This document shows positions 50,781-61,937 of a stretch of DNA of 64,000 nt, one piece after another. The notes below the pieces were generated by a model, which saw only the letters and a program-made list of their open reading frames with translations, did not search any database and was not told the DNA's origin. Source of the stretch: Leptolyngbyaceae cyanobacterium (GTDB lineage: Bacteria > Cyanobacteriota > Cyanobacteriia > Phormidesmidales > Phormidesmidaceae); the NCBI GenBank assembly GCA_965263355.1, contig CBDHHL010000029.1, positions 1-64,000 on the forward strand, read 5' to 3'. A program made the position numbers and the translations under genes. Numbering within the stretch: the stretch's first letter is position 1; each line of letters opens with the position of its first letter.

Positions 50781-52241
50781 CTAACGGTAAAATTGAACCT
50801 TTACCCGTTGTTGTGGCGAAAGTTGTTTCCCATGAACAACAACCTGCTTGATTAGTGAGTCAAGAATTATCCTTAGCTCACTGGGGGCTAGTTCTTCCCA
50901 GAATTCAGGATCCGCAGCAACCGTTTCGTAAATGTCAACGTCGTTTGGATCTACGTCTTGCCCAGTGGCTTGCTCTAGTTTTGATAGTTGCTGCTGCTTA
51001 GCCTGGATCACTCCACTCAATTCCGGATCCGCCATTGCCTGCAGCTGCTGTATCTGGTTTCTGAGTTTTATTATTTCTGGGTTCACTTCAGTGTTCGGCT
51101 CAGCAAATTCTTGAGCAATGTCGAGTGCCCTAGCGCAAACCTGTGAGATCACTTCCTTGAAGAATTGATCCGTTTTAATTGAATTCTTATAAGGGCACTG
51201 CCTTTTCACTCGGCTGTTAATGGTTGATTCTGCTCCTCCACGGCAAACCAGATATGAATACGTTTTTCCCTGCCTATGGACAGTACTATTATTGTGTCTG
51301 CCGCCGCATAAGCCACACTTAATTTTGCCAGCTAATGGCTTTCTGCTCCTGGGGAATCCATTGTTCATTGGATTAGGAGCAGAGGCAATATTTTCGACAG
51401 TTACTTGCACAGCTCGCCATCGGTCAGGATCCATAATCGCTTCATGGTCTCCCTTCCTGACTAGCTCATTAGGCTTGCCAGGGAAATCAACCAGATAACC
51501 ACGAATCACGGGAGACTGGACCCATCGCATAAATCCCTTAGTACTGACAGGGAAGTTTTTAGCAACTCCCCATCTCTCAGGATGCTTTTCGCTATAACGA
51601 CCGCACATTGCCCGAATAGTGGCCCGGTATCCTCCAAGCTCAATTAACGTATCGATCATTTCGATAGCGATTTCCCGATAAGTCTTTCCGTCAGAACCAG
51701 GGAAAATATCATCATTAATTACTAGCCGCTGATCGCTGTCCTTTTTATAGCCAAATGGCGGATTAACTATCCTGTTTTGACTACGCCTGAACGCATGCCC
51801 TTTTACACTGTGCTCCCGTGCTTGGTCTCGTTGATGCTGCGCAAATGTGGCATCCAGGTTAGCTTGCAGGTTCCCGGCTGCACTGGTCAGGTCGATAGGC
51901 TTGATCCCTTTGTCCAGCTCGATTAATTCGCAGTCATTTTCTAAAAGTGCATCCCTGATTTTTACCCACACTCCAATATCTCGATGCCCCCTGGAGTGAT
52001 ACGGGACTACAAAGTATTTCTTATTAGGATCTTTCAACCTGGCTAATGCTTTTTGTAAATCCTTGCGTTCGAATATGCCGCCGGATTCAGCATCAGAATA
52101 AATATCAGTAGGAGCAATGCCGACCGCTTCAAGACGCTCTAAATAACGCTCGGGACTATGGCCCTCTTGCTCCTGCCGTTGCGTCGAAACACGATAATAC
52201 CCAATGGCCTGAGATGGGTCGAAACTACTGTTTGCGGTCAA
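50781..52241 (-). CDS. Large serine recombinase (integrase, XisF-like)
   Basis: GYYRVSTQRQ catalytic motif, DAESG, SRGHR, PPFGY recombinase domain, CGLCG zinc ribbon, coiled coil. Confidence 0.92.
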   Translation of the reverse strand: MTANSSFDPSQAIGYYRVSTQRQEQEGHSPERYLERLEAVGIAPTDIYSDAESGGIFERKDLQKALARLKDPNKKYFVVPYHSRGHRDIGVWVKIRDALLENDCELIELDKGIKPIDLTSAAGNLQANLDATFAQHQRDQAREHSVKGHAFRRSQNRIVNPPFGYKKDSDQRLVINDDIFPGSDGKTYREIAIEMIDTLIELGGYRATIRAMCGRYSEKHPERWGVAKNFPVSTKGFMRWVQSPVIRGYLVDFPGKPNELVRKGDHEAIMDPDRWRAVQVTVENIASAPNPMNNGFPRSRKPLAGKIKCGLCGGRHNNSTVHRQGKTYSYLVCRGGAESTINSRVKRQCPYKNSIKTDQFFKEVISQVCARALDIAQEFAEPNTEVNPEIIKLRNQIQQLQAMADPELSGVIQAKQQQLSKLEQATGQDVDPNDVDIYETVAADPEFWEELAPSELRIILDSLIKQVVVHGKQLSPQQRVKVQFYR

Positions 52242-52986: not shown

Positions 52987-53381
52987 TTGATAGCAATCAA
53001 TGATTTTATTGAGGCGCATGAGCGAAGAGATTACACCTCAACAGCTGTTAGATGCAGTTGAGAACCCATACAAGCTATTAAGTAAGTGGGTTCTAATGCG
53101 TGGTGGCTGGACTGCTTTGTATAAGGTTTTTGGCTATGTTTCAGCACAAAGCTTTAATGAGGCTTTTAGTCGTAGGGCCACTAAAAACCGATGGACTGGG
53201 AAGGGGCTGAGAACTCATTTGTCCATACTGGTTCATCTAGACAATAATAGTCCAGAATTAGTCCAAAAAAATAGCACTCTCAATGAAAATGTTGAGGAAT
53301 AAGGGGTTTATTGGGCTGATTAGTTGCGGTTGCAGCAGCAAGTCAAAGATATGATTTTTCGGAAGTAAAAAAAGTACTTTA

Positions 53382-55076
53382 TCATTCCGTAATTCCTCTT
53401 TTCTTGTGGTTCTTTGCGGCGTTAACATCTGCATTTTGCTTCTGTTCAAATAGGCTACAGCTCTCATTTACGCAAATAAACGTGTCTTGGGCTGGCCTGA
53501 TGCCTTTCCCTCCGCAACAATGACAGCGTTGTGATGAGTATCTAGCCTCCGTCTCTATGTATAATTTCCCGGCTTCCTCTAATTTAGATTTTGTTTTAGT
53601 TCTAAGGTCGCCCATACAGGCTATTTTCAATGATCTGTTCAATCCTGCCTTAGCTGTTCTGCCGTTTTGCTCGTAATAACTTCCATCTTCAGCTAACTTA
53701 GGCGTTGTCTGCCTCCCCATGTTAGTTAACGCCGTAGCCTCCCAGGCGATGACATCATAAGTTCTGGCTAACCTGGTTGACAGCTTATGATTGAAAGCAT
53801 TTGAACTATTAACAGCTCGCTCATGCAGCCTGGATATTTTATTCCTAAGTTTTTGCTCGTTATTAGTGGCTTCACGCTTCCCACGCTTCCATATTTGTCC
53901 TAGCCGCTTATCATTTTTTTCAGTCATAATGTCAAGCTTGGATTGCAGCTTTTCAATATGATTGTGTATTCGTTGTCTGCTTTCGTTAGGATTAAATAAA
54001 TGACCTTCGTCAGTCGCTACAATTGCCTTAACGCCAGGGTCAATGCCCGCCATATGCCCGGTTCGTTTAGCGCATTTTGAGTCTTCTATTAGCAAGTATG
54101 GCAGCTCATTTTCTATTGACTTTTTCTTGGCTAATGCCGCTTGATAGTCTTCACTGTTAGCTAACGCCTTGGCTTGCTCCTTTTTCCCTTTAATGCCATC
54201 AATAACTTTTTTCTTGATAGCGATTAAAACTCTTTTTTGCCGTTTAAGCTCTAATCTATTTTCTTCTTCCGCTTCACTTTGAGTAGTTAAGCATAGATAG
54301 AAGCCACTCGGTTTTAATATCAGTTTGTAAGTCTTTATTACATAGCCTTCGAGTCTTTTTGAATAGCTACGATCGCACGGTTCTAAAACTAAGCCTTGAC
54401 CGTCGAATTGCCCTTTTTTGAACGGGATGGCTTTTTGATTATTGTTCAGCGTGCTAATTTTACACTGCTTGCCGTCCTTGTACTTTGGCTGCTTTCTAGC
54501 GGGCAGTTTCCCGTCTAAATAAGCCCTCCAGGCAACCTCAAAGTCAGCTAGTAGCCCCCCAACAAAATCGCTATTGCACGTTAATTCATCAAGACCCTGA
54601 GAACTTCGTGACGCATTTAGCAACGCCATATTGTCTAGTCCCCATGATTTCCCCTTTAGCTCACGTATTAATGGGACGCCTTCCTTGAAATAAGGGACTT
54701 CGATATATTTATGGGGTTCTGGCTTTATCCGCCTATATGGCTTATCCCCAGTCACTAACTCATAGCCAAGTTTTGTTTTGCCATCGCCATAGTGAATCAA
54801 AGGGGCTTTATCTGACTTCTTAAAATACGGACCTCCTTTAGCAATCTGACAAGCTGCGCCATTCCAACCGCCACTCTTTGAAAAGCGTAACGGCGTTCTA
54901 ATGCAGCCTGATAAGTCGACGCCTTTCTTTTCTACCCAGGCATACCACTCAAGGCAATGATTATGTAAGGCTACGGCCCGTACATAATTCCACAACCATT
55001 CAAGCTCTCTGCAAATTTTCTCGTATGTAATTAGTGTTTCAGGAGTCGGCTGGACTTTTACCTTGATCGTCTTCAT
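53382..55076 (-). CDS. TnpB-family RuvC nuclease, probable compact type V CRISPR effector (C2c8/V-U2-like), 564 aa
   Basis: MKTIKVKVQPT..WLWN N-terminus; RuvC-I GIDPG, RuvC-II IAWEAT, YSSQRCHCCG..CVNESC zinc finger, RuvC-III NADVNAAKN; CRISPR array about 540 bp away. Confidence 0.85.
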   Translation of the reverse strand: MKTIKVKVQPTPETLITYEKICRELEWLWNYVRAVALHNHCLEWYAWVEKKGVDLSGCIRTPLRFSKSGGWNGAACQIAKGGPYFKKSDKAPLIHYGDGKTKLGYELVTGDKPYRRIKPEPHKYIEVPYFKEGVPLIRELKGKSWGLDNMALLNASRSSQGLDELTCNSDFVGGLLADFEVAWRAYLDGKLPARKQPKYKDGKQCKISTLNNNQKAIPFKKGQFDGQGLVLEPCDRSYSKRLEGYVIKTYKLILKPSGFYLCLTTQSEAEEENRLELKRQKRVLIAIKKKVIDGIKGKKEQAKALANSEDYQAALAKKKSIENELPYLLIEDSKCAKRTGHMAGIDPGVKAIVATDEGHLFNPNESRQRIHNHIEKLQSKLDIMTEKNDKRLGQIWKRGKREATNNEQKLRNKISRLHERAVNSSNAFNHKLSTRLARTYDVIAWEATALTNMGRQTTPKLAEDGSYYEQNGRTAKAGLNRSLKIACMGDLRTKTKSKLEEAGKLYIETEARYSSQRCHCCGGKGIRPAQDTFICVNESCSLFEQKQNADVNAAKNHKKRGITE

Positions 55077-55239
55077 TATTTTGTACGTCGTTTTGTGGCA
55101 GCTCTGGCAGCATATCAATAAAGCGTTCCAATAGGTCTGCTATCGATATATCCCAAAGTCTACAATACTGCTCTAGCTTTTGTTTGCGACTTTGCTTGAT
55201 GCGCGCGTAAATCCTGCCTTCTCTATTCTCTTTTCCCAT
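55039..55239 (-). CDS. RHH/CopG-like regulator overlapping the effector start
   Basis: RIYARI..RKQKLEQYC..SIADLLERFIDMLP. Confidence 0.7.
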   Translation of the reverse strand: MGKENREGRIYARIKQSRKQKLEQYCRLWDISIADLLERFIDMLPELPQNDVQNNEDDQGKSPADS

Positions 55240-55255
55240 TTATATTAAAAAATAC

Positions 55256-55284
55256 TTGGCGTACAAAATATAACACGCTAATAT
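55256..55284 (+). promoter_or_regulatory. Promoter for tracr-like RNA / array
   Basis: TTGGCG-17bp-TAATAT. Confidence 0.55.
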
Positions 55285-55290
55285 AAGGAC

Positions 55291-55481
55291 ATCGCAGTTT
55301 GGGCGACAAGGCAGCGGAAACGTTGTTGGATGGCTTCAGCGCTAAGGTTCTCTAGGGGGCTATGGGTATCTTCTGTCGGGAAACCGATAAACACCAGCCG
55401 AAAGGCAAGATAGGAGCAAAAGGAGTCCGTAAGGCCCTTATAGATTCGCCGGATCTATGGCGAACAGTCTCAACTTTTTTT
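55291..55481 (+). ncRNA. Putative tracrRNA-like structured RNA
   Basis: Several GNRA-capped hairpins, a three-way junction, and a terminal hairpin plus T7 run, between effector and array. Confidence 0.55.
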
Positions 55482-55612
55482 GGCAAAGCTAAGCGAGGCC
55501 AAAAGAAGAACCTTGAAAAACAGGGATTAAAGCTTTGGCAAAATTGCCATTTTATGAGCTTTGCCAGAATCGCTCATAAAAGCCTTGCGGCTAAAGGGAT
55601 GCAGCTGTTTAA

Positions 55613-55995
55613 GCTGCCAAATCTTTTATCCCTACCAAGGGACTGAAACCATGATGGGGCGATTCTGGATATTGATTCCCTACCGCTGCCAAAGCTTTAA
55701 TCCCTACTAAGGGACTGAAACGCGGCAAAACCATTTGCTTTAGCTACGTCATCGCTGAGGCTGCCAAAGCTTTAATCCCTACTAAGGGACTGAAACAGCA
55801 GGTCAAAATCTGGAGAATTAGCAATCGCGATGGCTGCCAAGGCTTTGATCCCTACCAAGGGACTGAAACTAGCAATTGATAGCGATGAGTAAGGCATCAC
55901 GGGCTGCCAAAGCTTTAATCCCTACCAAGGGGCTGAAACGAGTCAATCTCTTGGATCACAGCCAAGCTTTTCTTGCGCTGCCAAGGGACTGAAAC
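55613..55995 (+). CRISPR. CRISPR array: 5 full 37-bp repeats + degenerate terminal repeat, 5 spacers
   Basis: Consensus GCTGCCAAAGCTTTAATCCCTACYAAGGGACTGAAAC at 55613, 55685, 55760, 55833, 55903; remnant ending 55995; unique spacers of 35, 38, 36, 33, 37 nt. Confidence 0.96.
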
Positions 55996-55999
55996 TTTA

Positions 56000-56872
56000 T
56001 CACTCCGTAATTCCTTTTAGCCCGAGTATAGTTACGACTGACCCCACGATCAGCGTAGACCACTCGAATATGTTCTTAATAGTTTCGTGGTCCAGGTTCA
56101 GTGCGAACGCCGCGATTGCAGCCAATGATACGCCAAGTACAAGCATGCCAAGCTTGATTTTTTTCTCAGCCTTGCGACGGGCGAGTAGCTGGGATTCTTG
56201 CTGACGGTTTAACGCTCGCTCTTGCTCCAGCGTGCTACTAAGGTCTAATAGGACACTGCTTTGTTCATTGAGCTTTTGGCCAAACTCCTCACGCTCTTTG
56301 GAGTATTGGACTTGCATCCGGCCCATGGCTTCAGTGAGCTTTTCTAGCTGATGCTTGGCCTGTGTGGCTTCCTGTTCGTAGATCCTCCGCTCCATTTGGA
56401 TAGCTTGGAATTGCTGCAGCGTTGGGGGGTCCGTATCATCTCCCGGCTCTTTTTCTGCAGGCCACTCAAGGATGCAATAGTATCGTGAGTTAATTAAATC
56501 ATTTTGGAATTTAGGGAAAATAGTGATACTTCCTGCAAGGCCAGGACGGAGCTGCATGAATCCAGTCACAGGACGATGGCCAACCCATACTCGTTGTTTC
56601 GACGGCTTCCATTCGCCGTCGACTAAGTGGCCATCGTGAACAAAATAATCCCAGCCCCTGGGACTTGCCTGGTTCTCTTCTGCTAACAAAGTGCATTGAC
56701 GAGAGCTGATCCAATTTTGGCAGCGGGCACCGACACCAATCTGAATGTGGTTTTCTGCAGGTTCAGCTCTGCCAATCGTAATTGGCCCACGCCTGAGTCT
56801 TTCTAGTGAGATTTCGTGTTGCTGATCACTCCCGCCTATTTCGGTGATCAGCAGATACTCTTCGGCTTTCAT
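56000..56872 (-). CDS. FHA-like domain + coiled coil + 2 TM protein
   Basis: ITIGR..ISSRQCTL..DG..S..VWV FHA pattern; heptad region; two C-terminal hydrophobic helices. Confidence 0.7.
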   Translation of the reverse strand: MKAEEYLLITEIGGSDQQHEISLERLRRGPITIGRAEPAENHIQIGVGARCQNWISSRQCTLLAEENQASPRGWDYFVHDGHLVDGEWKPSKQRVWVGHRPVTGFMQLRPGLAGSITIFPKFQNDLINSRYYCILEWPAEKEPGDDTDPPTLQQFQAIQMERRIYEQEATQAKHQLEKLTEAMGRMQVQYSKEREEFGQKLNEQSSVLLDLSSTLEQERALNRQQESQLLARRKAEKKIKLGMLVLGVSLAAIAAFALNLDHETIKNIFEWSTLIVGSVVTILGLKGITE

Positions 56873-56936: not shown

Positions 56937-57461
56937 ATGGCCACTATCCCAGACAGTTCAGGGTTACCGACAAGCGGGACAGGCACTGGACGGAGACTTA
57001 CTCGCGCTGATCTCCAGGCAATGATCGACAAATCGGTCACAAGCAGTATAGGCGAGGCGTTTCGACTCTCTGGGCAAGCTGACGAGCGGAATGCTGCTAG
57101 ACTCCGAGACTTGGAAGCCAGGATGGAGACTTTAATAAAGAAAGTCTCTGACAGCAGCTCGACAATAGCAGAGATAAAGGCTGGCTACGACGAATACAGG
57201 GAATGGGGCAGCAAAGTGGCTGAGGCTGTAGCGGCCACTGGAGGAGATGCTAGAACGCTGCACAGGACTATGGAACGGGTTGATGGCCTTGTTGAGATTG
57301 CTCAGTTGTTATTGAGAGTGCTAGAGCCAACAAGCAGGGCGATCAATTGGATGATCGACCGACTGCACCGGCTGGACAAAAGAACATACAGTCACAAAGA
57401 CGGGGCGGATATCACTAACCTAGTGAATGGCCCCCGACGAAGATCGAGTGATCGCGGGTAG
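56937..57461 (+). CDS. Coiled-coil hypothetical protein
   Basis: Helical heptad pattern; lies between the FHA and EAL genes. Confidence 0.55.
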   Translation: MATIPDSSGLPTSGTGTGRRLTRADLQAMIDKSVTSSIGEAFRLSGQADERNAARLRDLEARMETLIKKVSDSSSTIAEIKAGYDEYREWGSKVAEAVAATGGDARTLHRTMERVDGLVEIAQLLLRVLEPTSRAINWMIDRLHRLDKRTYSHKDGADITNLVNGPRRRSSDRG

Positions 57462-58510
57462 TGGCGCAGGGCGACCGAATAGGTAACCCTGCGCCATGTC
57501 ACAGCCGATTGCCTTAAGCATGTCGGCCTGTTGCTGGGTTTCCACGCCTTCAGCGATAACTTTGATGCTGAGTTTTTGCGATAGCGCCACAATTGCGTCA
57601 ACCATTACTCTGGATTCGCGAGCAGGCAGGCCACTAATAATAGATCTGTCGAGCTTTACCAGGTCAACTTGACCCTTCAGCAATCTATCGTAGCTGCAGT
57701 ATCCGGTGCCGAAATCGTCCAGGGCGATCTTTACGCCTTTCCCCCTAGCTGACTGAATCCGGCTCTGAATCTCCTCAGAAACAGCCTCAGTCTCCAATAT
57801 CTCCATATGCCCTCTAGCAGGCAGCTTTTGATCGTGCCAATCTGCTCTAGCTAGAGTGAATGGGCTGATATTAAAGCTGATCCACTGGCCAATCTTGCTT
57901 GAATCTGCCTGGGTTCGCTCGATTACCCAGTAGCACAGCAAGTGTTCACTGTTTGCCTTTCTCAGTAAAGGCAAGAAATCCCTGGAAAGATTAATGCATT
58001 GTCTTTTGCCCATCTTGACAACGCCTCATAACCAACGGTCTCATCGGATCTTAGGTCAACTATCGGCTGATAATGCAGGGCAAATCCGTTGTGGTTAATT
58101 GCGTATTTTATTTCTGAAAGCCTTTGTGTTTCAACCTCTGTCAGCTCTTTGTCGCCAAGTTTGCTGACTTGGGAAAAGAAATAAAGAAATTCTCCAGACT
58201 CAGAATGGAATCCTTCACAGTGCAACGTGCAAGAGATCCATTCTGCTGTTTGTCCATGCTTATAACGTTTTTTCAGTGTGAAAGATTTAAGTTCTCCATT
58301 GATTACGCTGCGGAATGGGTTGACCTGAGGCGTTAGATCGTCAGGATGACTGATTTCCTGAAACGTTAGGCGCAGCAACGTTTCTCGTTGATAACCCAGT
58401 ATTTCACACAGAGTCTCATTTACATCCCAGAACTTTCCGTCTGGCCCAACAATAGCAGCCCCTATCAGGCTGTTCCGTTTAAGTAGCTCTGGGATTCTAT
58501 GCATCATCAA
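57420..58510 (-). pseudogene. PAS-EAL c-di-GMP phosphodiesterase split by a single frameshift near 57981
   Basis: PAS (VNETLCEILGY..ISHPDD), YQPIV..GYEALSRW in one frame; FNISP, EILE, LDDFGTGY, VKLDRS, AEGVET, QGYLFGRP in the next. Confidence 0.8.
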
Positions 58511-58666: not shown

Positions 58667-59845
58667 TTAGCTTGCAAGTAAATCCAATAAGCTTAGCTGT
58701 TGCTTTTTGGGGGCTTCCTCAGTCGTTGCGGTCTGTTGTTTTAGCCAGTCTAATCTAGCCTGCTGCGATACAAAGTTTTGTTCTTTGCCGACTTTGCTAC
58801 GGGCTACATCTGCCCAATGAGGATCAATATCAATCCCGATAAAATGTCGTCCATGCTTTTTGGCCGCTACTAGAGTATTGCCGGAACCACAAAAGCAATC
58901 TAGAACTACTGAATTAGGTTTAGAACTAGCGTTTATTATGTGCGCCATCATGGCCAATGGCTTCTCGCATGGGTGCTTACCTGGGTAGCTTTGCACTGTC
59001 GGGAAGTCCCATATATCCGTGTAGGGTACGTCTGACGATACAATAAACGGTCTACGTAGTTCTTCGTATTGCTGACGTAGTTCTTCGTATTGCTGACGTA
59101 GTTCTTCGTATTGCTGACGTAGTTCTTCGTATTGCTGACGTAGTTCTTCGTATTGCTGACGTAGTGAGTTAGGCCCAAACAATTGGCGTAACCATTGATA
59201 ATTATGTTTTGTTGGCAATGCCCATTGAATAGAGGTGAACCAGTGGCCAGCCATACCCGTTACTGTTCGGCTACCTGTTTTTTTTTGAAAAGCTTCAGCA
59301 ACTTGTCTTATTGAAAATCCAGCCTCCATTCTCTCTCCATCCAAATACGCCCGCAACGGTTCAAAAACAAACCCGCGCAACTCATCACACTTTGCCTGAT
59401 AACCTGCTTCGCCTTTAGCTGCGTTATCTGCGCCGTAATGTTCACAAAAGATAATTGATTCCGATGCAGGGAAATAGCCTCTAAGAATTTCTTTGCATGA
59501 TCCTTTATGAAATCCTTGTTCCTTTCGCCATCGAATATTGTTCAGCACATTAAACCGATCGCTCAACAACACCTCAACTCGTGCTGACATTTTTGTGCTC
59601 GCGAAACAATACAGGCTGCCATTAGGTTTTAATATGCGTTGCCATTGCGCGGCTAGCTGGTCAATCCATCTCAAGAATTCTGCTGAATTATCCCAGGCGC
59701 GATCCCACCATTCGAATTTGCCTTTAGAACCGCCCCCTTTTACCTTAAAAAAAGGCGGGTCAGTTGCTATTAGATCAATGCTGCTATCAGGGATGCCGTT
59801 CATCACTTCCAAGCAATCGCCTTGAATAACTTGATTTAATTCCAT
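58667..59845 (-). CDS. Beta-class N4/N6 DNA methyltransferase
   Basis: IQGDCLEVM, TDPPF, HPCEKP, VLDCFCGSG, FIGIDI. Confidence 0.92.
   Translation of the reverse strand: MELNQVIQGDCLEVMNGIPDSSIDLIATDPPFFKVKGGGSKGKFEWWDRAWDNSAEFLRWIDQLAAQWQRILKPNGSLYCFASTKMSARVEVLLSDRFNVLNNIRWRKEQGFHKGSCKEILRGYFPASESIIFCEHYGADNAAKGEAGYQAKCDELRGFVFEPLRAYLDGERMEAGFSIRQVAEAFQKKTGSRTVTGMAGHWFTSIQWALPTKHNYQWLRQLFGPNSLRQQYEELRQQYEELRQQYEELRQQYEELRQQYEELRRPFIVSSDVPYTDIWDFPTVQSYPGKHPCEKPLAMMAHIINASSKPNSVVLDCFCGSGNTLVAAKKHGRHFIGIDIDPHWADVARSKVGKEQNFVSQQARLDWLKQQTATTEEAPKKQQLSLLDLLAS
59054..59165. repeat. Perfect 21-bp tandem repeat x5.3 encoding LRQQYEE
   Basis: ACGTAGTTCTTCGTATTGCTG at 59054, 59075, 59096, 59117, 59138. 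Confidence 0.95.
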
Positions 59846-59849
59846 ATCA

Positions 59850-61937
59850 TCAAAAATATCTAATCCTGCTTCCGCCAACTGGGCCGCGTGGAAGTGCCAA
59901 TATCCGCTTATCCCATTGTGTTCGCATCGCAGTCCAGTTAGGAGGGGTGATTGATCGATTGCTTCCAATGCTGCCCACCCCAGTCCCCCCAGATCGGCTT
60001 AGATCGCCCTGAAGAATATTGCCTGAAAACTGCGGGTCTTCCTGATAGCTGTTGTCATCGAGCAGAGCTTTACCCAGGCTGTTCCAGTTGGTTAGCCCAT
60101 TGTATTGGACGTTGTCGATTAGCACGCTCGGAGTACTGTCTGTACTGTCCCACAAAATATTGTTGTCGGCGGTTATGAAGTCGCCTGTGTTGACCGCTTC
60201 GTAGAGGTTCCCGTCGCCTTGCAGGATGCTGTCCCTGATGTCTGGCAGGCTAAATGCAAATGAGCCGGTGTGATATTTCACTACAGGCTCATTGTCCAGC
60301 TGCGTCGTGGTGACATTCCTAACTGTAGTAGTCCCGTTTCTGCCCCAAAACAAAGCCGTATCCACACTAGTCAGTGAGCCTACAACGGCGTTGCGGACTG
60401 TTGTGTTTGCAGTAGCTGAGTTTAAATTATTCCTGACGATGTATCCGTCAGTGCCCCCATTGATAGCCATGAGCCCATCAACCTCTATCGACTCGTGCCC
60501 AGAGAGTACAACCTGAACGTAACCATCAAAATAGCAATCTTGGATGTCCAGCTCTTCGCAGTCGTCAGCTTGAACTCCTCGCGTCCCGTTCAGTGCATAG
60601 CAATCTTTGACCAATAGTTTTTTGAGATCATCAGTCCCATTACTGGCATGGCAAAAGAAACTAGCGCCCGTACTGAGTGTATTGGGCGAATCTACAACGC
60701 AGCCTAGATAGGCATTCAACGCGGGCTCGTCATTGCTGCTTTTGAATATGACAGCAGGAGTACTAGACGGGATGCGAGAGTCGTTAACAATATGATCTTT
60801 GTAAAAGGCGCAATTCTCGAATATGCCCGATCCGATTTGCGCAAAATGGCTGTTCCCAAACTTAAAAAGACAATTTCTTACAATTGTCCCTCTAGCCGTA
60901 AAATACAGAGCGCCATTATCTCCAGTAGCAGTATCAATCTGGAAGCCATCAACGATGGACCCGTCGCCAGCGTTGTGAAACGCATACTGCCTAACCCCAC
61001 ACTCATAGACTTTCCCATTAGTGCGGACATCAGAGCTGTCAGAAGCGTGGATATACAGTGGAATTGTTGCTGCTGAGTTGGCATTTACATTGTCATGACC
61101 GGTGTATGTATAACTCCCCGCAGTCGTTTGACATGTCGCCACATCAGCCACGTACGTCAGTAGTTCGTCGTCCTCGATAACAATTGGGAACGATTCAATT
61201 GCAGTGATCGTGTGACTGATGTTGATCGTCCATGCATTACTGCTGGCATCGCTGAAGTTGGCGTTAGTCAGCACGTCAGCCGTTGTGACTCGCGGCAGTG
61301 GCCTGTCAGTTGATTCAGCCCGAATTGTTAGCCGTTTCCCGCCAAGATCACATTCCTCCCTAAAGGTGCTGTTGGTGCCATCAGCCGTATTGCGGACAAT
61401 AATGGTGTCTCCGTCAGACGATGCCGCAATCGCCGCTGAAATAGTGGCATAAGGAGCATAGTAATTCCCTGCTATCCCATCAGTAAAACTATCGTTGCCA
61501 ATAGCAGCGCTGACAAACACTGCAGTAGAGTCAATATTCAACGTCGCTTCTACTGCTGCTGTGGGGGCTGTAATCGTAAAGCTGCCAGTGAAGTCAGTGT
61601 CATCATCGCCTGCAATTTTTGTCCCCCCAATAATGCTGGCCGCTTCCCAGTTGACCAGCACGTCGGTCGCGGAGTTATTGAGTAGCGTGGCCTTATGAGT
61701 GGGGCTGATTAGTGCAGACCATTCTTGCTTGTTTGCGTTGTCGACAACCTTGGTCAATCCGTCGCCTTCAGTTAATTTTACGACTTGAGAACCAGCTGTG
61801 AGGGTTAATTCGAACCCAGCATTTAGTAATGAATCTTCTGTTTTGCGGACAAGGAAAACTTTTTTGCTGCCATATCGCCAACTGACGATAGACCCGTTGA
61901 ACAATTTATCGGCATCAGTGCAGACCATTAACAACAA
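59850..61937 (-). CDS. Beta-helix (pectate-lyase-fold-like) virion/depolymerase-type protein
   Basis: PYATISAAIAASSDGDTIIVR cap motif; repeated VRNC / FENC / IQDC strands; DPQF near C-terminus. Confidence 0.6.
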   Translation of the reverse strand: MLLMVCTDADKLFNGSIVSWRYGSKKVFLVRKTEDSLLNAGFELTLTAGSQVVKLTEGDGLTKVVDNANKQEWSALISPTHKATLLNNSATDVLVNWEAASIIGGTKIAGDDDTDFTGSFTITAPTAAVEATLNIDSTAVFVSAAIGNDSFTDGIAGNYYAPYATISAAIAASSDGDTIIVRNTADGTNSTFREECDLGGKRLTIRAESTDRPLPRVTTADVLTNANFSDASSNAWTINISHTITAIESFPIVIEDDELLTYVADVATCQTTAGSYTYTGHDNVNANSAATIPLYIHASDSSDVRTNGKVYECGVRQYAFHNAGDGSIVDGFQIDTATGDNGALYFTARGTIVRNCLFKFGNSHFAQIGSGIFENCAFYKDHIVNDSRIPSSTPAVIFKSSNDEPALNAYLGCVVDSPNTLSTGASFFCHASNGTDDLKKLLVKDCYALNGTRGVQADDCEELDIQDCYFDGYVQVVLSGHESIEVDGLMAINGGTDGYIVRNNLNSATANTTVRNAVVGSLTSVDTALFWGRNGTTTVRNVTTTQLDNEPVVKYHTGSFAFSLPDIRDSILQGDGNLYEAVNTGDFITADNNILWDSTDSTPSVLIDNVQYNGLTNWNSLGKALLDDNSYQEDPQFSGNILQGDLSRSGGTGVGSIGSNRSITPPNWTAMRTQWDKRILALPRGPVGGSRIRYF

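Follow-up and report, generated by a model that had tools for sequence, protein, structure and literature searches.

The DNA analysed here is a 64-kb stretch (the window) with a phage context: genes for a tape measure protein, DnaB and replication initiators, an XisF-like serine recombinase, and a CRISPR array beside the gene of a small effector (Table 1). The recombinase is of the large type (50781–52241, minus strand; 254 bits against a cut-off of 375) and is probably the phage integrase, and the phage's host we infer to be cyanobacterial from the named relatives. Neither cas1 nor cas2 was present among the ORFs scanned. A DNA methyltransferase gene (58667–59968, minus strand) carries a tandem 21-nt repeat at 59033–59186 (QQYEELR units), a 30-nt direct repeat occurs at 58503 and 59846, and two overlapping ORFs (57420–58510, minus strand) are possibly a single gene split by a frameshift; these ORFs presumably read like PAS-domain and EAL-domain proteins.

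Table 1. The effector, RNA and array module and its boundaries, in positions of the 64-kb window.
Feature	Position	Strand	Remarks
Cas12p-type effector gene	53382..55076	-	564 aa; RuvC triad D346/E446/D550, zinc finger, thioredoxin-contact Cys76; REC and C-tail both short
66-aa ORF, immediately upstream of effector	55039..55239	-	candidate small regulator
Predicted promoter TTGGCG-17-TAATAT	55256..55284	+	6 nt ahead of RNA position 1
tracrRNA core	55291..55471	+	5' end placed by homology
tracrRNA stem 1	55292..55306	+	GUUU loop 55297–55300, to repeat 3' AAAC (pseudoknot, R:AR-1)
tracrRNA stem 2, 7 bp, GAAA loop	55310..55327	+	pair probabilities 0.86–1.0
tracrRNA stem 3	55333..55417	+	GCUU 55333–36 with GAGC 55414–17, insert inside
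Lineage-specific insert, 77 nt	55337..55413	+	hairpin 55342–65; GAAA hairpins 55374–89 and 55397–406; possible closing helix 55367–72/55407–12
tracrRNA stem 4	55420..55439	+	GNRA loop GUAA 55429–32, GUGA in allele; corresponds to G76-C77-G78-A79 of solved RNA
Last internal stem UUCGCC-GGAUCUAU-GGCGAA	55445..55464	+	model, pair probabilities and covariation
Anti-repeat CAGUCUC	55465..55471	+	pairs with repeat −5 to −11 (R:AR-2)
T7 run and leader hairpin TTTTTTTGGC...GCCAAAA	55475..55504	+	no terminator called here
Perfect 19-nt complement of repeat nt 3–21, in leader	55522..55540	+	sequence match
CRISPR array	55613..55995	+	5 repeats (37 nt), 5 spacers (33–38 nt), terminal repeat
Terminal CRISPR repeat, 19 nt, internally deleted	55977..55995	+	end of array
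25-nt direct repeat, left copy	53376..53400		supplies effector's last codons
25-nt direct repeat, right copy	55994..56018		3' end of 290-aa ORF, immediately after shortened repeat

Searches with residues 2–564 of the effector identified Cas12p as its closest solved relative (PDB 9JFS, E 2.9e-111, 43% identity), in an alignment that runs end to end except for a gap of about 47–51 aa. The protein of locus L008 is identical to 9JFS over 613 aa and shares 230 of 533 aligned residues with the window effector. By alignment the catalytic triad is intact, and comparison with the L008 protein shows all four aligned PAM residues to be identical, 8 of 14 thioredoxin-contact residues, including the cysteine, to be identical (the other six differ, and W102 is absent), and two of seven basic TB.b residues to be kept (five differ). 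The effector falls within the size range given for Cas12p (500–700 aa) and has its WED-REC-TB-PI-RuvC-ZF domains and D-E-D triad. Its top match among both NCBIfam and PADLOC profiles is C2c8, scored at 172.6 bits by NCBIfam NF038192, below the curated cut-off of 350, and the C2c8 protein of cyanophage CL131 covers only 38% of the query at 32% identity. The sequence of the neighbouring gene product marks it as a relative of Cas12p (type V-P).

In a quick tree of 30 proteins two clades lie side by side, one of 12 members (support 98) that includes the window effector and one of 14 members that includes L008. The REC span, measured between the WxxW motif and the TB cysteine, is 32–46 residues in the window clade, where measurable, versus 73–86 in the L008 clade with the exception of L088 (37), and the C-terminal tail is short in the window clade too. 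The catalytic motifs GIDPG and WE are present in all 14 close proteins checked. The second orthologue, Cas12p-2, which the text of the Cas12p preprint describes as divergent (10.1101/2025.01.20.633832), may belong to this short clade.

The original prediction placed a GNRA-rich structured RNA between effector and array, as the tracrRNA or scaffold of the effector, and every string on which it was built lies where it had been placed: GCAGCG-GAAA-CGTTGT (55311–26), TGTCGG-GAAA-CCGATA (55374–89), GCC-GAAA-GGC (55397–406), TATCTT (55367–72) with AAGATA (55407–12), CC-GTAA-GG (55427–34), TTCGCC..GGCGAA (55445–64), CAGTCTC (55465–71) and the T7 run (55475–81). We built a covariance model (R1) from 16 distinct RNA copies, taken from loci with full-length effector relatives, and left the window out because a MAFFT alignment that included it misplaced the insert. 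On the window, R1 matched 55291–55475 of the plus strand from end to end (52.4 bits, E 8.8e-13); the runner-up scored 10.4 bits, so there is no second RNA copy downstream of the effector. Among 36 loci, five further copies outside the training set were recovered (two each in L001 and L002, one in L165), as well as one in L015 that duplicates a training sequence, and none of 16 distant TnpB-like loci gave a match at E ≤ 1. Across 21 distinct RNA rows, aligned by fitting to the model and hence leaning toward this result, 98.9% of the cells are paired and double-sided changes occur in 16 of 22 pairs, a result that none of 500 shuffles and no slid control reached. A comparison with Rfam returned no match at the gathering score in the 64 kb and none at E ≤ 1 in 55200–56050.

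The solved RNA is described in the text of the Cas12p preprint (bioRxiv 10.1101/2025.01.20.633832; the journal version is given as Wang et al. 2026, Nat Microbiol 11:81, in PMC13728456) as a 185-nt tracrRNA construct, with 118 nt modelled, that forms six stems and pairs its bases G7–U10 with the last four bases of a 37-nt repeat in a pseudoknot; the PAM is GTN. The stem numbers used here are our own mapping onto that text, and the RNA of L008 contains the paper's numbered bases (G7–U10, U42, U43, G64, C77, G78 and A79, counted by hand). All core stems are conserved in the window RNA: stems 1, 2 and 3 (GCUU/GAGC), stem 4 with a GNRA loop, and the last stem, which the AUAGA linker precedes. Its first pair in stem 1 is U-A where related RNAs have C-G, the GUUU loop lies at positions 7–10, and both stem 1 and the last stem show compensated changes. 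The bases of the contact between stems 4 and 3 are present at the sequence level (GUAA 55429–32, U55335, U55336 and G55416), with the middle bases of the stem 4 loop differing from C77-G78 of the solved RNA.

In folding energy, the stretch 55290–55481 has z = −0.97, with 27 of 200 shuffles as good, and 55291–55471 has z = −1.31; the predicted structure thus exceeds chance by homology, without support from folding energy alone. Mean pair probabilities lie at about 0.8–1.0 in the last stem and in the three GAAA hairpins (about 0.6 for terminal pairs). The minimum-energy fold pairs 55349–72 with 55421–44, disrupting stems 3 and 4, and the homology fold is 6.4 kcal/mol worse than this optimum, compared with 10.2 for an allele described below and 0–7.9 for the relatives.

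The promoter of the original prediction is in place, and its register (−35 box, 17–18 nt, −10 box, 6 nt, position 1) is conserved in 13 of 20 related copies, which have TTGACA and at least 10 of 12 consensus positions. The window's boxes (TTGGCG 55256–61, a 17-nt spacer and TAATAT 55279–84) match 8 of 12, with three of six in the −35 box; the −10 box is the same as at the locus of the solved Cas12p. A consensus promoter scan did not include the window's predicted promoter among its calls. A palindrome, GCGT..ACGC at 55259–55278, spans the spacer of this promoter, and the 66-aa ORF has a weak PHROG repressor match (E 0.003) and only three near-identical proteins among those found; together they could form an autoregulatory operator between back-to-back promoters, which is possible. 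At ten loci (L004, L005, L008, L010, L086, L087, L089, L163, L164 and L232) the TTGACA −35 box of the RNA promoter lies within the effector's last codons (e.g., KKRLTK), an overlap that may explain why the effector tail is conserved though disordered.

Two contacts with the repeat are predicted. The pairing of CAGTCTC with GGGACTG had been foreseen and corresponds to the second repeat:anti-repeat helix of Cas12p tracrRNA relatives (R:AR-2), with 7 of 7 pairs in the window; the defining pseudoknot, GTTT at 55297–300 against the AAAC that ends the repeat (4 of 4 pairs), had been missed. R:AR-2 covaries across 15 RNA–array pairs, where cognate repeats form on average 6.8 of 7 pairs versus 5.3 with swapped repeats and none of 20000 permutations is as good, a p value that is optimistic because the best of 8 registers was picked and the loci are related. 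The pairs differ on both sides between L008 (CAACUAU:AUAGUUG) and the window (CAGUCUC:GGGACUG).

Taken together, the R1 match, the Cas12p-type effector and the pairing with the repeat support the assignment of the RNA to the adjacent effector: on the plus strand, 55291 to at least 55471 is homologous to the Cas12p tracrRNA and very probably serves the neighbouring nuclease as its tracrRNA. What is proposed for transcription, for formation of the RNP, for PAM and targets and for dependence on thioredoxin is read across from the solved relative, which by the preprint's account depends on thioredoxin (10.1101/2025.01.20.633832). By this analogy, the tracrRNA would be transcribed from the promoter at 55256–84 and would pair with each crRNA repeat twice, through GUUU:AAAC and CAGUCUC:GGGACUG, while being held by the effector's WED and RuvC domains. 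The spacer would then direct DNA cleavage beside a GTN PAM, with host thioredoxin as the probable cofactor and competing mobile DNA as the probable target. No spacer target turned up in searches of phages and plasmids, of viral contigs (for spacer 2 only, as an exact 22-mer) or of the window itself.

The T7 run had been taken for the 3' end of the RNA, which the analysis does not support. We rejected an intrinsic terminator at this point: the T run lies 10 nt past the stem of the last hairpin, a terminator scan made no call there, and the run opens a leader hairpin with counterparts in 9 of the 20 related copies of the RNA (one more match, the tenth, is unrelated). The leader also has a perfect anti-repeat of 19 nt (55522–40), 40 nt past the run, which fits the internal repeats better than the first repeat; in the other 14 leaders the longest complement to the repeat is 5–12 nt, and in 5 of 15 cases the cognate repeat comes out top. 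The repeat's own hairpin is worth −10.3 kcal/mol, and binding to the repeat in trans is estimated, by subtraction, at about −3 kcal/mol for an RNA with a short 3' end versus about −25 with the 19-nt element. These folding results suggest that the primary transcript continues past the T7 run and that the 19-nt leader anti-repeat may open the repeat's hairpin, helping repeat capture. In Cas13 systems, leader–repeat hairpins that block extra crRNAs are described in one report (PMC13187072).

Read-through of this kind raises the question of whether there is a separate tracrRNA at all: promoter, scaffold, leader and array could form one transcript, folded in cis as a natural single guide and trimmed later, which would differ from a tracrRNA acting in trans only in RNA ends and maturation. 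Between the core and the array no terminator was called, bar weak terminator-like sites at 55536–49 and 55601–17, and when 55445–55649 is folded, CAGUCUC binds the first repeat in cis and AAAC stays free. Relatives include natural single guides of the same geometry, L088:718 (minus strand) and L002:2006, the latter with a compensated pseudoknot (GUUC:GAAC). In the Cas12p RNP, however, tracrRNA and crRNA are separate components according to the preprint (10.1101/2025.01.20.633832), and five spacers would demand pairing in trans, or processing, for all guides but one. We consider a single cis-folded transcript a somewhat unlikely account of this locus.

Stem 3 spans 85 nt in the window versus 18–50 in the other 21 rows. 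Assignment of the insert to stem 4 was rejected since the AGC-AA-[20 nt]-AUAGA pattern at 55415–44 has the exact family spacing, which leaves the insert in stem 3. Two of the GAAA hairpins and the three-way junction first proposed fall inside this insert: the hairpins are well predicted, but they lie outside the conserved scaffold, and the closing helix TATCTT/AAGATA is the weakest element, with a pair probability of about 0.05 in the whole RNA. Folded alone, the 46-nt junction, a stretch picked post hoc, has z = −3.4 (3 of 500 shuffles).

An allele present in runs X1–X3, all from one study, carries 10 substitutions in 55291–55471, nine in the insert and one in the 104-nt core (binomial p 0.003), and the single core change, GUAA to GUGA, keeps the GNRA loop; the core is spared. 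Within the insert five of six touched pairs are kept, one via a double-sided change; the pair that breaks is the terminal one of the closing helix. Random transitions preserve insert pairs equally well in 11–38% of trials, so that the evidence from the allele for selection on the insert's predicted fold is weak. Besides this allele, no further locus with the insert was found in searches of viral contigs, by patterns and in cyanobacterial genomes. A single-protein scan of viral contigs and a long-gap pattern search each returned no long variants, a loose pattern search gave one Cas12p fragment among the matches listed, and 401 genomes of the cyanobacterial phylum yielded one match, already known. 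One candidate long variant, L379 (16 bits), was rejected as a chance match inside a coding gene; the same pattern otherwise returned the contig of L003.

Could the insert nonetheless have a function, either replacing protein that is missing in the sub-clade (about 50 residues of REC and 25–45 of the C-terminal tail) or holding the scaffold off until the effector binds? The longest three cores (185, 160 and 146 nt) belong to the three loci whose C-terminal tails are short (8–11 aa), compared with 118–139 nt at long-tail loci, the alternative helix of the minimum-energy fold has 20 pairs, and the four allele changes in or near that helix, outside the 55374–89 hairpin, hit positions unpaired in it. 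Yet these loci represent two independent lineages at most, with dissimilar insertions in different stems, and L088 combines a short REC with the shortest core. The insert also receives 9 of the 10 allele changes, and the alternative helix would pair the AUAGA linker, which is single-stranded in related RNAs. We consider a functional insert quite unlikely; most likely it is an extension at the periphery of the tracrRNA that is tolerated.

The layout of the module also departs from that of its relatives. In 13 of 13 distinct related array loci the RNA and array lie downstream of the effector on the same strand; in the window they are back-to-back with it, pointing away. There are partial precedents: at L011 a second RNA–array set lies 2.1 kb upstream on the opposite strand, and at L088 a back-to-back single-guide copy adjoins a 51-aa ORF. 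A 25-nt direct repeat flanks the module of candidate regulator, effector, RNA and array on both sides (the copies agree at 23 of 25 positions). The window has three such pairs outside the array, and through this one the effector and the 290-aa ORF both end in GITE-stop-stop. Of 14 close proteins, six end in GITE and eight otherwise, two C-terminal types that look as if the cassette occupied different sites. No joint skipping the module between the direct repeats was listed among the alleles. The contigs of runs X1–X3 diverge from the window at 53348 and continue with other DNA, indicating that related phages carry something else there.

At the end of the array (55977–56018), the terminal repeat has lost 18 nt between two CCAA copies and is followed by the right 25-nt copy, which could be taken as a guide directed at the left copy with 1 mismatch in 20. 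Cas12k homing guides, as described in bioRxiv 10.1101/2021.02.06.429022, likewise consist of a shortened terminal repeat followed by sequence matching the module's other boundary, but the window, unlike those systems, has no transposase, and the GTAC before the match puts the GTN PAM one base off. Homing by the shortened terminal repeat was rejected on account of this flank. A further scenario would join these features: protein traded for RNA in the sister clade of short REC and short tail, with a 77-nt GAAA-capped stem 3 domain in place of the missing helices; leader read-through with the 19-nt anti-repeat loading crRNAs; a cassette of regulator, nuclease, RNA and array moving between phages, bounded by the 25-nt repeats; and a shortened repeat that makes the insertion site a guide. 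We regard this combination as very doubtful. The last alternative, a decaying relic whose module was rearranged and whose insert misfolds the scaffold so that the system no longer works, would fit the short array with its shortened last repeat, the weak −35 box, the broken stems 3 and 4 of the minimum-energy fold and the lack of targets found, but is scarcely credible against an intact ORF with its triad in the window, GIDPG and WE in 14 of 14 close proteins, a core spared in the allele, and compensated base changes in both stem 1 and the last stem.

Several related loci show arrangements of their own. Cyanophages CrV-01T and Cr-LKS4 have a Cas12p-like ‘transposase’ with two RNA copies upstream and no array nearby. 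Array-less copies lie at L001:1795–1912 and 2368–2488, and at L002:2006–2126 and 2368–2488; the L002:2006 copy has a GUUC loop and a GGGAAC end, and the next 20 nt match the phage's own neighbouring gene with 2 mismatches. The CrV-01T and Cr-LKS4 loci look like single-guide intermediates. At L088:600–718 (minus strand), the scaffold is followed by a self-paired anti-repeat hairpin, GAAAC and a guide starting with ACTTGACA (−35-like), back-to-back with the effector, and the 51-aa ORF lies between single guide and effector. L008 (L008/L009, downstream of 4890) has a single effector and two tandem arrays of different repeats, and L011 (upstream of 892) has one effector and two RNAs, each matched to its own array.

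Compared with Cas12p-1, also called ‘Cas12 hacker’ (9JFS, 9JG3), the window shares a 37-nt repeat ending in AAAC, a 5' stem with the GUUU(G) pseudoknot loop, stems 2–5, the GNRA loop and its U-U-G partner positions, a CA-started anti-repeat directly 3' of the last stem, a TAATAT −10 box 6 nt ahead of position 1, the catalytic and PAM residues, and a phage setting without cas1 or cas2 among the ORFs scanned. The two differ in core length (185 nt in the window versus 123) and stem 3 span (85 versus 26), in the place of RNA and array (upstream on the opposite strand versus downstream), in the effector (a sister-clade protein at 43% identity whose REC and C-tail are shorter) and in the perfect leader anti-repeat (19 nt versus 7 nt in L008); a further difference is that the 66-aa ORF and the 25-nt direct repeats are part of the window module. 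The window RNA therefore adds about 60 bases and a back-to-back layout to an already described tracrRNA. In the text covered, from one primary Cas12p paper and reviews, no enlarged or back-to-back Cas12p tracrRNA was found.

Type V-U2/C2c8 systems (cyanobacteria, cyanophage CL131) resemble the window in having a small RuvC effector that adjoins an array in a cyanophage, but the CL131 paper, in its available text, found no tracrRNA (PMC6293099), whereas the window effector has a tracrRNA homologue. The ISDra2 TnpB omegaRNA is called structurally consonant in the Cas12p preprint (10.1101/2025.01.20.633832). TnpB omegaRNA shares with the window RNA a pseudoknot between the 5' loop and the 3' end and the layout of stems, and the array-less copies of L001 and L002 and the copy at L088 (718, minus strand) resemble single guides of the omegaRNA type. 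Unlike omegaRNA, the window scaffold is split from a five-spacer array, and no match to the TnpA family was found among the flanking ORFs scanned.

The window locus reveals no new kind of system. It does supply the predicted guide scaffold of a Cas12p orthologue of 564 aa, whose clade shares only 43% identity with the solved enzyme; the orthologue thereby becomes testable at once, and the alignment marks 77 nt that can probably be removed. For the family, the locus suggests that peripheral scaffold stems and locus layout are plastic at the transition from TnpB to Cas12.
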